A stretch of DNA of 27,551 nt from Bacillota bacterium (GCA_003444595.1 DLUO01000072.1:1-27551), one strand, 5' to 3'; counted from the stretch's first letter, positions 5,104 to 25,895 are shown. The notes: generated by a model from the sequence alone, not told the origin. Made by a program: numbers and translations.

Positions 5104-5381
5104 TTTATAATTTCTACAAAAGGCGGATTTTTCCTTCGAAAATTGCCTTTTGAGGCGTATGGTTAATTATGACAATGCTACGCTGAGAGGCAGTCCTAAT
5201 TTTTCCTTGACTGCAGAGCGTATTGAAAAATATGTAAAGGAGTAGCAGAAGAAAAATCCGGTTTCCCCAAATCGTTATTACAGATATTCCGTCAGCATGA
5301 ATCGATTCCACCTCTACAGGTGAAGCTTGCTGTAGACGACGGTGAGGGAAATATATGGAGTACATTTTGCGAAAAACTACC

Positions 5382-5411
5382 TTGACATAAAAATATTAAA
5401 TGGTGTAAAAT
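5382..5411 (+). promoter_or_regulatory. Sigma-A promoter of the T-box leader
   Basis: TTGACA (5382-5387), 18-nt spacer, TAAAAT (5406-5411). Confidence 0.8.
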
Positions 5412-5432
5412 AAGTTTCAACCACAGTTTGGA

Positions 5433-5737
5433 TAAAACCGATGAAGGGGAGAAGTAAGCAATTTTGAAGATGGCAGAGAGCCGGGGGTAAGGTGCGACCC
5501 GGTATCGACGGTTGCTGAAATACACCCCGGAGCAGCAAACCGAAAGCAGCCGCTTTCCAGCAGTTGGTGAGCGGTTTAGTAAGTAGGCTTTGACGGAAAC
5601 TCCCACCGTTAAAAGGGAGGGGGTATAAAGCTGGGACAAAAACCGGCCCGTACCCTGTAAAGAGGGGGGCTTTGTGCCCAACCAGGGTGGTACCGCGTGA
5701 AGATAAGCTTCCGTCCCTATGGGATGGAAGCTTTTTT
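5433..5737 (+). ncRNA. T-box riboswitch, Tyr specifier (UAC), transcriptional type
   Basis: Stem I GGGG-AGAAGTA-AGCAATT ... GGTTGCT-GAAATACA-CCCC with AGAGAG and GGTGCGA distal motifs and UAC at 5521-5523. CCGTTA stem IIA/B motif at 5606-5611. T-box AACCAGGGTGGTACCGCG at 5680-5697, then a terminator. Confidence 0.93.
5705..5737 (+). terminator. T-box attenuator terminator
   Basis: 13-bp stem AAGCTTCCGTCCC/GGGATGGAAGCTT followed by a T-run. Confidence 0.9.
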
Positions 5738-5834
5738 AGTTAGTTTGTTTATGCGAGCTGAGGGGAGGAAGGCAGTAGTTTTTATTAAGGGATTTGCATT
5801 TTTTCCACTAAAAAACGGCAGGAGTGATTAAAGC

Positions 5835-7283
5835 ATGGCTCATGTAAAATTTTATTATGGAGATAGTGTTCCCTTAGAGATGCATAAGGCCCGTATTGTT
5901 CAGAAATTAAAGCTTCTACCCATCGAACAGCGTTGGGAAGCGATGACCCGGGCCGGCAATAACACTTTTTTACTCAAAAATCGTGATGTTTTTTTGGATA
6001 TGCTTACAGACAGCGGTGTAAACGCCATGAGTGATAAGCAGCAGGCTGCGATGATGGAGGCAGATGACAGCTATGCCGGGTCTGAAACTTTTAGCAAGCT
6101 GGAGAATAAAATTCGGGAGATTTTCGGCAAAGAGTATTTTCTACCCGCACATCAGGGCCGAGCATGTGAGCATATTCTTTCCAAGGCCTTTGTCGAACCG
6201 GGCTCCGTAGTACCGATGAATTATCATTTTACGACCACCAAAGCGCACATTGTTTTAAATGGGGGGATTGTGGAAGAACTTTATCTGGATGAGGGCGTGA
6301 AAGTCCAAAGCAGCCACCCCTTTAAGGGCAATATGGATATTGACAAATTTCAGGCAGCCATTGAGAAGTACGGGGCGGCAAAAATTGCTTTTGTCCGTAT
6401 GGAGGCCGGGGCTAACCTGATTGGCGGGCAACCCTTCTCTCTGGAGAATATGCAGGAAGTGCGCCGCATATGTGAAAAATATGGCCTGCTGCTGGTTTTA
6501 GATGCCAGCCTTTTGGCCGATAACCTCTATTTTATCAAAAAACGGGAAGAAAAATGTAAAAAGATGAGCGTCAGGGAGATAACCCGTGCCTTGGCCGATC
6601 TTTCCGACATTATTTATTTTTCCGCGCGCAAGCTTGGTTGTGCTCGCGGCGGCGGGATTTGTACGAACAATAAAGAAATATACCAGAAAATACGAGAACT
6701 TGTACCGCTTTACGAAGGATTTTTGACTTACGGGGGCATGTCTGTCCGTGAAATGGAGGCCATTGCTGTCGGTTTGGAGGAAACGATGGATGAAGACATG
6801 ATCAACCAGGGGCCACAATTTATCGCTTATATGACCACAGAGCTGCAAAAAGCAGGCGTACCGGTCGTAACACCGCCGGGCGGCTTGGGTTGTCATCTTG
6901 ATGCTATGGAATTTTTGGCGCACGTTCCCCAGGTGCAGTATCCTTCAGGTGCCCTGGCTGCTGCTCTCTACATTGTTAGCGGCGTAAGGGGAATGGAAAG
7001 GGGCACTTTATCCGAACAAAGGGATGCAGAAGGCCGGGAAACATTGTCCAATATGGAACTTTTGCGCTTAGCCGTACCGCGGCGCGTTTTTACCCTTTCC
7101 CAAATTAAATACGCCATTGATCGCATTGTCTGGCTTTATGAAAACCGTCATTTGATTGGCGGGCTGACTTTCGTAGAGGAGCCCCGGGTTTTACGTTTCT
7201 TTTTTGGTAGATTGACTACCGTTTCAGATTGGCAGGCCAAATTGGTGGCGAGGTTCAGAGAATGCTTCGGAGATAGTTTGTAG
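5835..7283 (+). CDS. tpl: PLP-dependent beta-eliminating lyase, tyrosine phenol-lyase/tryptophanase family; TPL-type specificity residues
   Basis: DMLTDSG, DSYAGS, HQGRA, GGQP, SARK (PLP Lys), MERG, LRLAVPRRV motifs. HFTTT and LRFFF match TPL Thr124/Phe448 rather than tryptophanase Asp/His. Family assignment is firm; the tpl symbol is inferred. Confidence 0.85.
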   Translation: MAHVKFYYGDSVPLEMHKARIVQKLKLLPIEQRWEAMTRAGNNTFLLKNRDVFLDMLTDSGVNAMSDKQQAAMMEADDSYAGSETFSKLENKIREIFGKEYFLPAHQGRACEHILSKAFVEPGSVVPMNYHFTTTKAHIVLNGGIVEELYLDEGVKVQSSHPFKGNMDIDKFQAAIEKYGAAKIAFVRMEAGANLIGGQPFSLENMQEVRRICEKYGLLLVLDASLLADNLYFIKKREEKCKKMSVREITRALADLSDIIYFSARKLGCARGGGICTNNKEIYQKIRELVPLYEGFLTYGGMSVREMEAIAVGLEETMDEDMINQGPQFIAYMTTELQKAGVPVVTPPGGLGCHLDAMEFLAHVPQVQYPSGALAAALYIVSGVRGMERGTLSEQRDAEGRETLSNMELLRLAVPRRVFTLSQIKYAIDRIVWLYENRHLIGGLTFVEEPRVLRFFFGRLTTVSDWQAKLVARFRECFGDSL

Positions 7284-7775: not shown

Positions 7776-9653
7776 TTAAAACTTAAACGCGGCTATAGCA
7801 TTGTTCAGTTCATCCACCAAACCCTGAAGATCCGAAGCTGAATTGGCAATCTCGTTCATGGTTGCCGTTTGTTCCTCTACAGCCGCAGAGACTTCTTCAC
7901 TGCCTGCGCCGATTTCCTGCGCGACGGAAGCCACTTGCTCGATACGGCCGACAATTCCCTGGATCTGATCGATAATCTGTTTTAAGATATCTCCGGCATA
8001 AAATACAGCCTCAGTGCCGTTTTCCACGCTTTTCACGCTTTCAGACATTTGTTCGGCCACATTGCGGGACTCATACTGTATGGAAGTAATAATTTTTGTA
8101 ATTTCTTCTGCCGAAGAAGCAGATTGTTCGGCAAGTTTACGCACTTCCTCGGCGACTACGGCAAAACCTCTGCCCTGCTCACCCGCTCTGGCAGCCTCAA
8201 TGGCTGCATTAAGTGCCAACAGATTGGTTTGTTCGGCGATGCCTTTAATAGTGCCTACGATACTTCCAATATTTTCTACCTGAGCGTTCAATGAGGAGAC
8301 GTTTTCCTTAAGATTAGCAACGTTTTCGGATATGTCTCCCATTTGCGAGACCGCTTTTTCCACAGCCCCATATCCGTCTTGTGCCCTTTCGGAAATCTGT
8401 ATCCCCATTTTGTGCATCTCATTGGCACCTTCACTTAAATTGCTTGCCCCACTGGAGAATTCGTTAGCTGAGGAAGCAACTTCTTCCAGGCTGGCACTCA
8501 TCTCTTCAGAGGAAGCGGCCAGGGATTCGCTGGATTGATGGACTTTTACAGACCCTGCTTTCACCTTGGAGAGCATCTCCCGCAAAGATTTCTGCATCCT
8601 GTCAAAACTGCGTGCCAGAATACCAATTTCGTCCTTCATATTAAGAACGGAAGAGGGCAGCTCATTGGAGAAATCACCATATGACATATTATCAGCAAAT
8701 GTACTGGCATCTTTAATGGGACTTGAGATGGCACGCCCCAACCACAGGGCAAGTAATACGCCCAGAACAAGTGCCCCTAAAGAAACTGCCATAATAACAT
8801 TTCTTAACTGTCGGACACCGGCAAGTATTTCGTTTTCAAAAGAGCCCACCGCCAGGCTCCAACCGGTATTTCCGATAGGTTGATAGGCCATATACCTTTT
8901 TTCTCCTTGAAAATAATATGACTCCACTCCCTTTTCTCCGGCAACCATTTTGTCTATGAGCCGCGCCAATTCTTCATAATCGGGATCGGTTTTGGCCATT
9001 TCCCTGAAATCTACTTGATCATAAATGAAGTCCCTGTTTTCGTGTGCAATTAACAACCCAGTAGAATTGGTAATAAAGGCGTATCCCCTTTCCCCGAAAC
9101 CCATCTGATCGGTAAAATCGGTCAAAAAAGCAGCATCATTGGTGCCGAAAACAGCGCCGGTAATTCTGCTGCCATAATAGACGGGGGCGATATTAACCAT
9201 GACCATTGTGCCATCTTCGCGACTTATAATGGGATCGGACATATTTGCTTCTCCCTGCATTGCCTTCTGGAAATATTCCCTGTCACCGATTTGCATTTCA
9301 ACATAATCAACGGTAATGGCAGCACCGTTGCTATAAGAAAAGGCAATGTTCAGAGAATCGTTTCTTTGCGCTTCCCTACGAAGAACCGACAGCTTCTCTT
9401 CTAACTCAGTTTCAGGAGAGCCGATTACCTCCAAATTTGCAAGGACTCTAAAAACATCAAGTTTGCGTTCAAGCTCCGACTCGATTTTCGCCGCACATTC
9501 TTCGGCAAGCTGCACAAGCGAACGCTCCACCTCGTTTACGACAGCACCAGAAGACCTGGTGTAAGAAATTATCCCCAGACCGGCGCAAACCACAAGCAGA
9601 ATGGCAATAACAAATGCAGCAATTCTTTGTCCGATACTTTTAAACTGTAACAT
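7776..9653 (-). CDS. Methyl-accepting chemotaxis protein (TM-dCache-TM-HAMP-MCP signal)
   Basis: [38 protein letters not shown] hairpin, DEIG.LARSF HAMP, extracellular Cache-like region (GERGYAFI...G..IAH). Confidence 0.95.
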
Positions 9654-13682: not shown

Positions 13683-15215
13683 CTATATCCAGTTGCACTG
13701 TAAACCTTCTCTAATTATTTCTCTTGCCGAGATCTTTTCTCCTGTTTTTGCCTCTATCAAATTAGATAATATTTGCAAACCCTGGGGACTTTCGAGCAGG
13801 GCAAAAGAAGTAAAGAGACATAGCCCAAGGTTGGTGGAGGCGATCGTGTATGCGGACAGATAGTCCAGGTCGCTAATGTCTTCCAAGCCCTCTTCCCTAT
13901 AAGGCAGGCGGATGACAAACGCGGGAGCTTCCTTCTCCGAGGGGCGGGTTACCAGGGGCTGTAGCGCCGGATCGTCCGCAAAAAGAGCAGCTAACCCTGC
14001 TGTCATGCTGCCCAAAGCCCTTCCCCGCAACGAAAGCCTTTCCACCTCCTCCGCCATATGCTCGATTGCAGAGAGTTGCCAAGGCGTCCCCTCTGCCTGA
14101 AACAACATCTTGCAGCTGGCAATAAACTCTATGGGATCCAGGCCGAACTCAAAACAGCGTCGCGTGATGCGCCGGGCAAAATGCAGGTCATTTATCCCAA
14201 ACATTTCCCGACATGCCGCTATTACTTCATTTTCCATGGGTGAGCTTAATACCTCGCCAGTGTTGGCGGCATGCCTGTTCAGACAACCCACTACACAACC
14301 GGAGGCACAGTTGCGATTCAGGCGAATTGTTTTTTTAGCCCTATTAACACGCTGCTCTTTCTTTTCTTCCCTTTCTTTTACCGTGACGCCATCTATGTTG
14401 ACTCCGGTTTTTTCCCTTTGCGCTTTGCTCTGAAAAGCTTCTTCCGGGTTGTACTCCTGCAGCATTTTCATTAAAGTGATAGAACCGTAAGCGGGAAGCG
14501 CGCCCCCGCAAACAGGATGCTGCACGATGAGCCTGCTCAGCTGCTTGCTGTAGATCGATAACCTATCTGGATCCTGAACATCTGCCGAAAAGTGAGGCTT
14601 TGTGGATATGACCACGGCTTTTAATCCCAGACTCCCAAAAACCTCCCCACCTTTGTCACGGCTTACGGAAAAAACGGGTATGCCCCGGGCAGGATAAGTG
14701 CTGAAAATCCCGGCGAGGGGAAGCAGATGCTCCCCGGCCGGCCCAACTCCTACAATGGCTGAGTCTTTTCCCCATTTTTCCCGCAGAAAGCTGATAGTTT
14801 CACCGACAGGTTTATCCTTCAGCACCGGGAAAATATGCAGATCCACGCCTTCTTCCCGGATGTGTATTACTGCTGTCCGGCCGGGGCTATAGGAACCGGT
14901 GACAACAAGGGCGGACACTCCCTGGGAGGCAAGCTTTTGGGCAAAAGGCCCCGCTGTATTAGCCAAGTGAAGGCCCCTTTCCCGAACTTTTAAACCGGCG
15001 ATAACCAGCCTTCCTGTGGAGGGAACCTTTGTGCCTGACAGCAATCCCGGAGCGAGAACCAGACAATTGCCGCGGCCGCGGCCTGTTTTTGGGACGGTCA
15101 GTGCTCCAATAAGCTGCACAGCCAGACCTCTTCCTACTGAAGAGAGATTCTTAAAGACAAAGGCTTCCTCGCTAATTTTAAATCTATCCAGGTCAACATA
15201 TATAATTTTAGACAA
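13683..15215 (-). CDS. Divergent aldehyde:ferredoxin oxidoreductase-like protein
   Basis: N-domain motifs APGLLSGT..PS.GR, GPAGE, G.V.GS.GLKAVV. Also CASGCVVGC, FGLDPIE and LGLCLF. TTG at 15215 with GGGGAGG RBS overlaps the upstream ATPase stop. Confidence 0.85.
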   Translation of the reverse strand: MSKIIYVDLDRFKISEEAFVFKNLSSVGRGLAVQLIGALTVPKTGRGRGNCLVLAPGLLSGTKVPSTGRLVIAGLKVRERGLHLANTAGPFAQKLASQGVSALVVTGSYSPGRTAVIHIREEGVDLHIFPVLKDKPVGETISFLREKWGKDSAIVGVGPAGEHLLPLAGIFSTYPARGIPVFSVSRDKGGEVFGSLGLKAVVISTKPHFSADVQDPDRLSIYSKQLSRLIVQHPVCGGALPAYGSITLMKMLQEYNPEEAFQSKAQREKTGVNIDGVTVKEREEKKEQRVNRAKKTIRLNRNCASGCVVGCLNRHAANTGEVLSSPMENEVIAACREMFGINDLHFARRITRRCFEFGLDPIEFIASCKMLFQAEGTPWQLSAIEHMAEEVERLSLRGRALGSMTAGLAALFADDPALQPLVTRPSEKEAPAFVIRLPYREEGLEDISDLDYLSAYTIASTNLGLCLFTSFALLESPQGLQILSNLIEAKTGEKISAREIIREGLQCNWI

Positions 15216-16005
15216 AGCTTTGTACCTCCCCAAAAAATTTCATATTTTCCACCAGTTGTCGGGTATAGGCATCGGCTGGAGAATTCAGAACGTGTTCAGT
15301 TACTCCTTCTTCCACAATACGGCCTTGGTACAAAACGTAAACATATGTGCATATTTTTTTGAGAACACTGATCTGATGGGTAATAAATAAGATGCCGAGA
15401 GACGCTTCAGCGTTAATAGCCTGCAGAAGATCCAGAATGGAGTGGGCGCTTTTTGCATCGAGCATGGAGACGCTTTCATCGGCGATCAACAAGCGGGGGC
15501 GGGGGATCAGAGCCCGGGCGATAGCTGCTCTTTGGCGCTGTCCGCCGCTTAGCTCCCCAATTTTTTTATTAAAGGCCCAGCTGGCATAAGGAAGACCCAC
15601 CAGCTCCAGAGCCTCCTGCGGGCTGAACATACCCTGCCGTCTCCTTCTCTGGCACAGGCGCAGCGGTTCGCGCAAAGTCTGCTCCACAGTATAGCTGGGC
15701 TCCAGGGCTGAATAAGGGTCCTGGAAAATATACTGGATATCCGCTGCAAGGGTAAAAGACCGGCGTTGCAGGGGCAAAAGCGGCTTTCCCTCCAGAAAAA
15801 GCTCCCCTCCATCCGGCGTCTCCTGGCCGGTAATTATCCTGGCGAGGGTCGTTTTGCCTGCGCCGCTCTCGCCGAGAAGGCCGACCATGGCCCCCTGTTT
15901 TACTTCCAGGCTGACTTTTCGTAGAACGTGAATTTTCCCTCCGCCCAATATCTCATAGCTTTTCTCCACATTCCGCACGCTCAACAGGGATTTTGCTTCG
16001 CGCAT
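15208..16005 (-). CDS. Opp/Dpp/Nik-type ABC importer ATP-binding subunit (DppF-like)
   Basis: GESGAGKTT Walker A, IFQDPYSAL Q-loop, LSGGQRQR signature, IADES, ITH. Confidence 0.93.
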   Translation of the reverse strand: MREAKSLLSVRNVEKSYEILGGGKIHVLRKVSLEVKQGAMVGLLGESGAGKTTLARIITGQETPDGGELFLEGKPLLPLQRRSFTLAADIQYIFQDPYSALEPSYTVEQTLREPLRLCQRRRRQGMFSPQEALELVGLPYASWAFNKKIGELSGGQRQRAAIARALIPRPRLLIADESVSMLDAKSAHSILDLLQAINAEASLGILFITHQISVLKKICTYVYVLYQGRIVEEGVTEHVLNSPADAYTRQLVENMKFFGEVQSFV

Positions 16006-20476: not shown

Positions 20477-20926
20477 TTATTGGTCCGGATTGGCGTAACA
20501 GTATAGACAACCGCTTTTACAGGTCATAGCGTACCAGCCCAGATCAATTGAAGAGGTGCATCCGCACAGCTCTCTCTGATTTTTGGCTTTGGCGGTGGTA
20601 CACTGTTCTTTTTGCGGGTGCAGCCTGCTGAGCAGCTCTCCATCGATACACCTGCTCACCGGCGCGCCGGGTATGCAGCAGGCATGAACAACCTCCTGGC
20701 CGGACGACTTCTTTAGCATGTTCAGGATCTCCAGCTGCATTTCAGTTGAATATGGCAGCAGGATAAATCCGTGCCTGGCAAGCCTTTGGACAACCTTGGG
20801 GTAGGGTGAGCAAAAACTTGTTGAGAAATTGCGGATGCCGTATCTGCAAGACAACTGTACAATCTCCATAGCCCGTTCCTGATTATCGATTACTTTGCCG
20901 TTTTCTAAGCCTGGAAAGATAGTAAA
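20477..20926 (-). pseudogene. 5'-truncated DUF1848-family (Fe-S, radical-SAM-like) gene
   Basis: CID..L, QRELCGC..SIDLG.Y..C..GCLYCYANP C-terminal motifs. The frame is closed by TGA just above 20926 and the N-terminal half is missing. Confidence 0.8.
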
Positions 20927-25008: not shown

Positions 25009-25305
25009 ATGCTTCCAGCCTTCCTTCACCGGTATTTCTGGGACCATCCGGTAAATCAAGTTAATAAAGAAACACATAGTTTTTTTATTATTGAGCGGCT
25101 TTTAGAGCTTGGTAACGACGACGCTATCCGGTGGGTTTTGAGGAGTTATCCCCAACAAGAAATTACTGAAGTTGTTAAAAAAAGCCGTGTCCTTTCCAAA
25201 AAAACAGCAAATTTTTGGAAAAACTATTTCCGGTTAAACAAGGAGGAAATCAATTGTTTGCAAACGTCCTCTCAAAAGACCGAATCGATTTATTGGCCAT
25301 GCTAA
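25009..25305 (+). CDS. DUF6922-like protein, putative antitoxin
   Basis: YFWD........FFIIERLLELGN.......Y....I pattern, directly upstream of an AbiEii-type gene. Confidence 0.8.
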   Translation: MLPAFLHRYFWDHPVNQVNKETHSFFIIERLLELGNDDAIRWVLRSYPQQEITEVVKKSRVLSKKTANFWKNYFRLNKEEINCLQTSSQKTESIYWPC

Positions 25306-25895
25306 GCGAAAATAACTTGTTACAGGGCTTATATATGGCCGGGGGGACAGCTGCAGCATTACAGCTGGGCCATCGGAAATCGGAAGACTTTGATTTTTTT
25401 TCAGCCGAGCTGCATCCGGAAACACTGGCGAATAGTTTATCGGCAAAAACACAATTTGAGATATCTTCGGCTACAGCAGGTTCTCTACACGGCTTTATTA
25501 ACAATGTGAAAATAAGCTTTTTACTGTATCCATACCCACTGCTCTTTCCAACACAGTCGTTTATGCATGTAACTTTGGCTGATATAAAGGACATTGCTCT
25601 AATGAAAGTTGTTGCCATCGCAAATAGAGGCACCAATAAAGATTTTATCGATCTCTATTTTATCTGTAACACATGCATATCTCTTCAAGAACTACTATTA
25701 AATCTGTTTCCTAAAAAATACTCGAATCAATCCTATTCTCTTTATCATATTTTTCGCAGCCTGCAGTATTTTGAGGATGCAGAAAAATCTCCACCCATAG
25801 AAATGCTACACAACGTTGAGTGGAATATTGTTAAAGATTTCTTCATAAAAGAAACAGAACGCCTGGCAAAAAGCGTTCTGCCAGAAAATCATTAA
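25254..25895 (+). CDS. AbiEii/AbiGii-family nucleotidyltransferase (type IV TA toxin-like)
   Basis: YMAGGTAAALQLGHRKSEDFDFF, MKVVAIANRG..KDFIDLY, SL.YFEDAE motifs. TTG at 25254 with AAGGAGG RBS, overlapping the upstream gene by 52 nt. Confidence 0.9.
   Translation: MFANVLSKDRIDLLAMLSENNLLQGLYMAGGTAAALQLGHRKSEDFDFFSAELHPETLANSLSAKTQFEISSATAGSLHGFINNVKISFLLYPYPLLFPTQSFMHVTLADIKDIALMKVVAIANRGTNKDFIDLYFICNTCISLQELLLNLFPKKYSNQSYSLYHIFRSLQYFEDAEKSPPIEMLHNVEWNIVKDFFIKETERLAKSVLPENH

Follow-up and report, generated by a model that had tools for sequence, protein, structure and literature searches.

A complete tyrosine-specific T-box leader, followed by a single gene for a pyridoxal phosphate (PLP) lyase of the tyrosine phenol-lyase (TPL)/tryptophanase family, was identified at positions 5382-7283 of a 27,551-nucleotide stretch of Bacillota bacterium DNA (GCA_003444595.1 DLUO01000072.1:1-27551), which was analysed as a whole and is called the window below. 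The source habitat of this DNA is anaerobic digesters and biogas reactors. The lyase probably supplies tyrosine as part of a tyrosine-supply regulon, working in the tyrosine-forming direction, with phenol, pyruvate and ammonium, or phenol and serine, as the likely substrates; we hold this reading as a whole with moderate confidence. The tyrosine-supplying role is well supported by the regulation, and we infer from the sequence that phenol is a substrate and that the reaction runs in the direction of synthesis.

The tyrosine T-box leader and its gene

The leader (5432-5721, + strand) matched the Rfam T-box model RF00230 over its full length (model positions 1-219 complete) with a score of 120.1 bits against a gathering threshold of 93 and an E-value of 2e-26. 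It comprises Stem I, Stem II, Stem IIA/B, Stem III and the antiterminator, and no other Rfam match was found in the window. Upstream of it is a sigma-70-type promoter (TTGACA-18-TAAAAT; 5382-5411, + strand) matching the consensus at 11 of 12 positions. Promoter-like matches in the region are not more numerous than in shuffled sequence; this promoter is correctly placed and falls within a segment, 5368-5735, that shares 86% identity with the leader of a close relative, G012. An intrinsic terminator with a 13-bp stem and a U run (5705-5739, + strand) excludes the antiterminator, and its hairpin (5705-5733, followed by U6) has a folding energy of -22.4 kcal/mol (z -6.5). An earlier note, made from the sequence alone, had described a complete T-box with promoter and terminator, and these results bear it out. 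The leader of the window is a standard class-I transcriptional T-box riboswitch. Leaders of this family respond to uncharged cognate tRNA, which stabilises the antiterminator, so that RNA polymerase continues into the gene. Contigs from RNA libraries span 5432-5697 of the leader and also the lyase coding region, which is no proof of regulation. A single RNA-library contig departs from the window immediately 3' of the terminator, at position 5737.

On its 3' side the specifier loop has the sequence GAAA-UAC-A, in which the tyrosine codon UAC occupies 5521-5523 (+ strand) and is followed by the conserved purine A5524. The frame of the specifier was calibrated on six other T-boxes of the same genome with identified downstream genes. 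The same columns gave UUC for both pheS and aroQ, CUC for leuA, UGG for a TrpB-like gene, AUC for ileS and GGC for glyQ, which makes the tyrosine reading sound. The UGGU of the T-box bulge (5688-5691, + strand) pairs with a tRNA ACCA end, and the tRNA-Tyr(GUA) found in the genome of the window ends in A73-CCA, complementary to the bulge. Both the UAC specifier and the UGGU/A73 pairing, as proposed in the earlier note, were therefore confirmed. Its additional claim that UGGU excludes tRNA-Trp did not hold: the UGG (Trp) T-box of the same genome carries UGGU as well, so the discriminator argument against tRNA-Trp is weak. In three Trp T-boxes of relatives the bulge is UGGC. The three independent signals for tyrosine counted in that note are thus really two, the specifier and the active-site residues. 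UAC was found at the calibrated position in all lyase leaders and in all leaders preceding aroF-tyrA (see below), and the T-box of the window is specific for tyrosine. A Phe (UUC) T-box lies directly before aroQ elsewhere in the genome (G000:C175:3179-3501, L006), and it shares about 80% identity over its 3' half with the window's own Tyr T-box. This resemblance suggests a leader duplication with a one-base specifier switch between UAC and UUC within the aromatic regulon.

The lyase gene (5835-7283, + strand) encodes 482 amino acids and is preceded by an AGGAG ribosome-binding site (5820-5824, + strand) before the ATG at 5835. The next gene (7776-9653) encodes a chemoreceptor and is convergent, so that the lyase is the single gene under the leader, as had been claimed. 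The element GAGGGGAGG at 5760-5768, regarded in the earlier note as a spare ribosome-binding site, was rejected as such because no open reading frame begins behind it; it also bears no likeness to the ribosome-binding region of aroF in relatives.

Recurrence of the leader and operon context

A T-box was located directly upstream of the lyase in seven of the first 77 orthologous loci. These are the window (its genome is G000), three genomes of one related genus in its family (G012, G024 and G019), a Halanaerobiales metagenome-assembled genome (MAG), a Bacillota MAG and Natronincola. A second ortholog scan using the Natronincola protein as query added Mageeibacillus and otherwise returned mostly the same genomes. 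Tyr (UAC) T-boxes stand directly before orthologs of the clade in five lineages, and the Stem II and linkers of the lyase leaders differ among the distant ones. In the distant lineages the lyase is followed by unrelated genes, namely one for a chromate transporter, one for a RING-finger protein or a convergent gene; the T-box serves the lyase alone there. In G097 the lyase and the tyrA operon are each behind their own Tyr (UAC) T-box; in G099 one precedes the lyase, another precedes an ABC binding protein, and a further T-box is found near tyrA. As a control, 20 loci from the same order that hold true TPLs or tryptophanase-like paralogs were examined, and none had a T-box. Based on these repeated pairings the lyase is a recurrent member of the tyrosine-starvation regulon, and the view that the pairing is no accident of this window is supported.

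The earlier note had asked whether the T-box is conserved upstream of orthologs, and had named as damaging to its proposal both orthologs without a T-box and relatives with tyrS or a transporter gene between leader and lyase. Conservation extends to five lineages and to the minority of loci given above, while neither tyrS nor a transporter gene was found between leader and lyase in any relative. The distance from the T-box terminator to the lyase start includes about 515 extra bases in G024 and about 285 in G019 (L012:2947-3576; L013:2292-2689), and the open reading frames of 180 (G024) and 91 (G019) amino acids contained in them had no NCBIfam match. The Bacillaceae orthologs (L059, L063-L069, L072) have no T-box and share a near-palindrome of the AAACGCTTTAAAGCGTTT type approximately 100-130 nt upstream of the lyase start, which may be a candidate operator; no regulator gene is adjacent to these loci.

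The closest relatives provide the operon context. In G012 the Tyr T-box is followed by the lyase, 3-deoxy-D-arabino-heptulosonate 7-phosphate (DAHP) synthase (aroF), tyrA, aroA, aroC, aroB, aroE, aroK and aroQ, with a gap of 60 nt and no terminator-like run between the lyase and DAHP synthase genes. In G024 and G019, too, aroF starts 59-60 nt after the lyase. Because it heads the tyrosine biosynthesis operon in close relatives, the lyase probably supplies rather than destroys tyrosine. On the opposite strand of G012 (L124:361-1841), divergent from the Tyr operon, a Phe (UUC) T-box precedes a second DAHP synthase gene; with separate Phe and Tyr T-boxes, the two isoenzymes would be switched on separately by phenylalanine and tyrosine shortage.

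Eight relatives without the lyase carry a UAC T-box directly before aroF-tyrA, and the leader of the window therefore matches an aro-operon leader. It is 85% identical to the lyase leader of G012, 81.5% to the aroF leader of G031 and 72-77% to the aroF leaders of its own genus. Homology between the window and G012 begins at 5368 and ends at the lyase stop codon, and the strain variants in digester RNA libraries likewise diverge right after the lyase stop. This pattern is consistent with either of two histories: the lyase may have been inserted behind the aro leader in one lineage, or it may have been lost from that position elsewhere. Synteny with same-genus genomes did not reveal an insertion site, at about 70% DNA identity and with no shared gene order. 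Promoter, leader and lyase stand together in the window as a separate unit that has no aro genes.

Carriers of the lyase had been predicted in the earlier note to lack tyrA or the shikimate pathway. This prediction failed. The tyrA domain PF02153 scored above cut-off in 48 of 50 ortholog-carrying genomes, and aroF-tyrA and the shikimate genes directly follow the lyase in the nearest relatives. Among 61 relatives PF02153 was above cut-off in 50, including every lyase carrier except the genome of the window itself. The exceptions among the 50 ortholog carriers include the Halanaerobiales MAG, a single case, in which aroC is present and PF02153 gave no match. The lyase thus adds to the de novo route of tyrosine synthesis and does not stand in for it.

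A distinct clade within the TPL/tryptophanase family

The lyase matched PF01212 (Beta_elim_lyase) with 178 bits and the NCBIfam subfamily NF009709 with 609 bits (cut-off 285). Against the TPL equivalog TIGR02618 it scored 450 bits, below the cut-off of 720.7 and compared with 785-839 bits for true TPLs of the same order; against the tryptophanase equivalog TIGR02617 it scored 355 bits, below the cut-off of 825.8. The closest PDB matches are TPLs (E-values of 1e-111 to 1e-113, approximately 40% identity), and the alignment to them supplied the TPL residue numbering. The PLP lysine is K266 in the motif S-A-R-K (codon 6630-6632, + strand), equivalent to TPL Lys257. The equivalents of TPL Thr124, Arg381 and Phe448 are T133, R389 and F455, the first and last as stated in the earlier note, and that of the general-acid tyrosine is Y80. 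Orthologs are labelled "tryptophanase" in databases, a label which is misleading given the TIGR02617 score and the presence of Thr and Phe at the positions equivalent to Asp137 and His463.

Orthologs at 63-86% identity were found in Bacillota, Actinomycetota, Pseudomonadota and Bacteroidota. Cultured carriers of the clade enzyme include Schinkia azotoformans LMG 9581, Pseudobacteroides cellulosolvens DSM 2933, Niallia oryzisoli and Rhodoplanes serenus. A tree and a residue census were prepared from 77 orthologs plus 21 paralogs taken from the same order. In the tree the orthologs are monophyletic (SH-aLRT 100); the clade has short internal branches, its stem measures 2.63 substitutions per site, and it adjoins the true TPLs. 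All 77 keep the equivalents of Phe36, Tyr71, Arg100, Phe123, Thr124, Asn185, Asp214, Lys257, Met379, Arg381, Arg404, Phe448 and Phe449; TnaA-like paralogs have Asp, Leu and His at the Thr124, Arg381 and Phe448 positions. All 77 also carry the substitutions E69D, R217L, K256R, D258L, N262R and H343L, where the sequences outside the clade have Glu69, Arg217, Lys256 and Asn262 in 21 of 21 cases, His343 in 19 and Asp258 in 17. Several of the replaced residues we take to belong to the monovalent-cation site of TPL or to contact the PLP O3', a role not confirmed in the literature searched.

The clade thus keeps all the residues which bind and activate the phenol ring in TPL, and its pocket looks like one for a 4-hydroxyphenyl side chain. 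The rewired sites around PLP, by the same comparison, suggest that the lyase is not simply a TPL. What remains of the description "TPL-type enzyme" given in the earlier note is a pocket of the TPL and not the tryptophanase type; membership in the TPL equivalog is not part of it. The closest named orthologs, at 80-81% identity, come from Smithella and Smithellaceae MAGs (L038, L040). These Thermodesulfobacteriota MAGs fall inside the Bacillota part of the tree, a placement that points to lateral transfer or mis-binned contigs.

Elsewhere in the window, open reading frames at 893-1417, 13683-15233, 20477-20869 and 25215-25895 gave partial Pfam matches (CN_hydrolase, 53-202 of 256; AFOR_C, 4-138 of 385; DUF1848, 147-262 of 262; and AbiEii in part), in agreement with an earlier remark on truncated genes in the window.

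Proposed role, alternatives and significance

Under the proposed mechanism, tyrosine shortage would leave tRNA-Tyr(GUA) uncharged, and the tRNA would pair with the UAC specifier and the UGGU bulge. The antiterminator would be stabilised, the terminator avoided and the lyase gene reached by read-through. The lyase would then condense phenol with pyruvate and ammonium, or phenol with serine by beta-replacement, to give tyrosine, as a salvage route alongside the normal prephenate route and not in place of it. In anaerobic digesters and biogas reactors ammonium is abundant and phenol occurs, so that the thermodynamic objection to synthesis carries less weight.

A number of observations weigh against this reading. 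Most orthologs have no T-box, and no convincing Tyr-codon leader peptide was seen upstream of the T-box-less orthologs in this sample. No neighbour gene of the lyase is conserved across the 77 loci and no phenol source is encoded near it. Given that tyrA co-occurs in nearly all carriers, the lyase is not needed for prototrophy. The genome of the window, an assembly with runs of N that is 62.5% complete, yielded aroA fragments and aroQ but neither aroF nor tyrA. In this family the aro operon has the leader too, so the lyase could first have come under such control by chance, through its insertion site. The family-typical Glu69, Arg217, Lys256, Asn262 and His343 are replaced throughout the clade, and together with the long stem this means that its chemistry may differ from that of TPL. 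No enzyme assay for the clade was found in the literature searched, where coverage of subscription journals is limited.

It is extremely improbable that the leader senses a tRNA other than tRNA-Tyr, such as tRNA-Trp, or tRNA-Ile by way of a shifted codon. A G73 would be tolerated by UGGU through wobble, the Trp T-box of the genome itself carries UGGU, and a shift of one base upstream from UAC gives AUA; against this stand the frame calibrated within the same genome, the UAC at the same columns of every lyase and aroF-tyrA leader, and pocket residues of the TPL rather than the tryptophanase type. Regulatory hitch-hiking, in which an ordinary tyrosine-degrading enzyme landed behind the Tyr T-box of an aro operon and kept it on moving, so that starvation control has no adaptive meaning, is quite unlikely. 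It would account for the 81.5% and 85% identities to the G031 aroF and G012 lyase leaders, for the eight relatives with the same kind of leader directly before aroF-tyrA and for the lack of a T-box at most orthologs elsewhere. It does not fit the four other lineages, where Tyr T-boxes with differing backbones precede the lyase alone without aro genes, or G097 and G099, where the T-box near tyrA is not the Tyr T-box that precedes the lyase. Furthermore, the leader of the window stayed with the lyase and not with the aro genes, and it would be harmful to induce a degradative enzyme when the cell is starved of that enzyme's substrate.

A further alternative is that the lyase raises the charging of tRNA-Tyr through another reaction, such as destruction of a tyrosine analogue that blocks TyrRS, amination of 4-hydroxyphenylpyruvate as an aminotransferase, or conversion of D-Tyr. 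We consider this unlikely. The invariant R217L, K256R, N262R, E69D and H343L, the very long stem branch, the score far under the TPL equivalog cut-off and the lack of an aminotransferase gene in the G012 operon are in its favour. However, Y71, according to TPL mutagenesis the acid that protonates the leaving ring, and the ligands of the phenol hydroxyl, T124 and R381, are invariant in the clade. This points to a reaction that breaks or makes the C-beta to C-gamma bond of a 4-hydroxyphenyl substrate, and the last step of tyrosine synthesis is normally done by general aminotransferases. A more specific form of the tyrosine-supplying role, which we regard as unlikely, is that the clade is a dedicated tyrosine synthase and no reversible lyase, joining free phenol to an activated three-carbon donor such as serine or O-phosphoserine. 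Here the arginines R265 and R271, invariant in the clade, would take the place of TPL's monovalent cation or hold the leaving group, and the enzyme would be the tyrosine counterpart of TrpB2. Such a synthase would provide a second widespread tyrosine route drawing on environmental phenol in digesters, guts and soils.

TrpB2 acts in indole salvage. TrpB2-type enzymes (TIGR01415) resemble the lyase in being stand-alone PLP enzymes that could rebuild an aromatic amino acid from the free ring, and differ from it in fold type and family. In the genome of the window a Trp (UGG) T-box (G000:C24:9553-9833) controls the TrpB-like PLP enzyme gene at 8139-9509 (L004; NF009057/TIGR01415, 732 bits), which is followed by an open reading frame of 301 amino acids on the same strand. 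By analogy, this gene may be a parallel in which the same regulatory logic is applied to indole.

Tyrosine induces classical TPL, a catabolic enzyme, by way of TyrR; the lyase of the window is switched on by the opposite signal, tyrosine shortage. The TPLs of Citrobacter freundii and Erwinia herbicola (TIGR02618) share with the clade the fold, the PLP lysine and all known residues of the phenol-ring and carboxylate pocket. They are set apart from it by the approximately 40% identity, the long stem, the six substitutions listed above and a score of 450 as against the cut-off of 721 bits. Among leaders, those of B. subtilis tyrS and of the tyrosine biosynthesis operon and phenylalanine-4-hydroxylase gene in the B. 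cereus group have the same class-I architecture, UAC specifier, UGGN bulge and terminator/antiterminator switch, but unlike them the leader of the window controls a TPL-family lyase. The Tyr T-box targets on record are tyrS, transporters, tyrosine biosynthesis and phenylalanine hydroxylase, and T-box control both of tyrosine biosynthesis from shikimate and of the enzyme converting phenylalanine to tyrosine has been described (PMC2494555). The surveys searched do not include a TPL-family lyase among the genes under T-box control, and no paper linking a T-box with TPL or tryptophanase was found, subscription-journal coverage being limited. The present work adds the aro-operon context, an origin for the leader, the test that spoke against tyrA loss, the control with paralogs, the census of residues and the finding that the discriminator argument is weak.

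The T-box offers a handle that is independent of homology, in that the direction of a reversible enzyme is assigned by its regulation and not by similarity of sequence. With leader, lyase, aroF, tyrA and shikimate genes together in the relatives, the idea can be tested in one operon. If the lyase does supply tyrosine from phenol, a widespread enzyme clade is mislabelled as tryptophanase in databases, and surveys of guts and digesters would count a phenol-consuming tyrosine maker as a producer of indole or phenol. Tyrosine would gain a salvage route analogous to that of indole, and anaerobic communities would possess a sink for phenol, which is a toxic product of fermentation.

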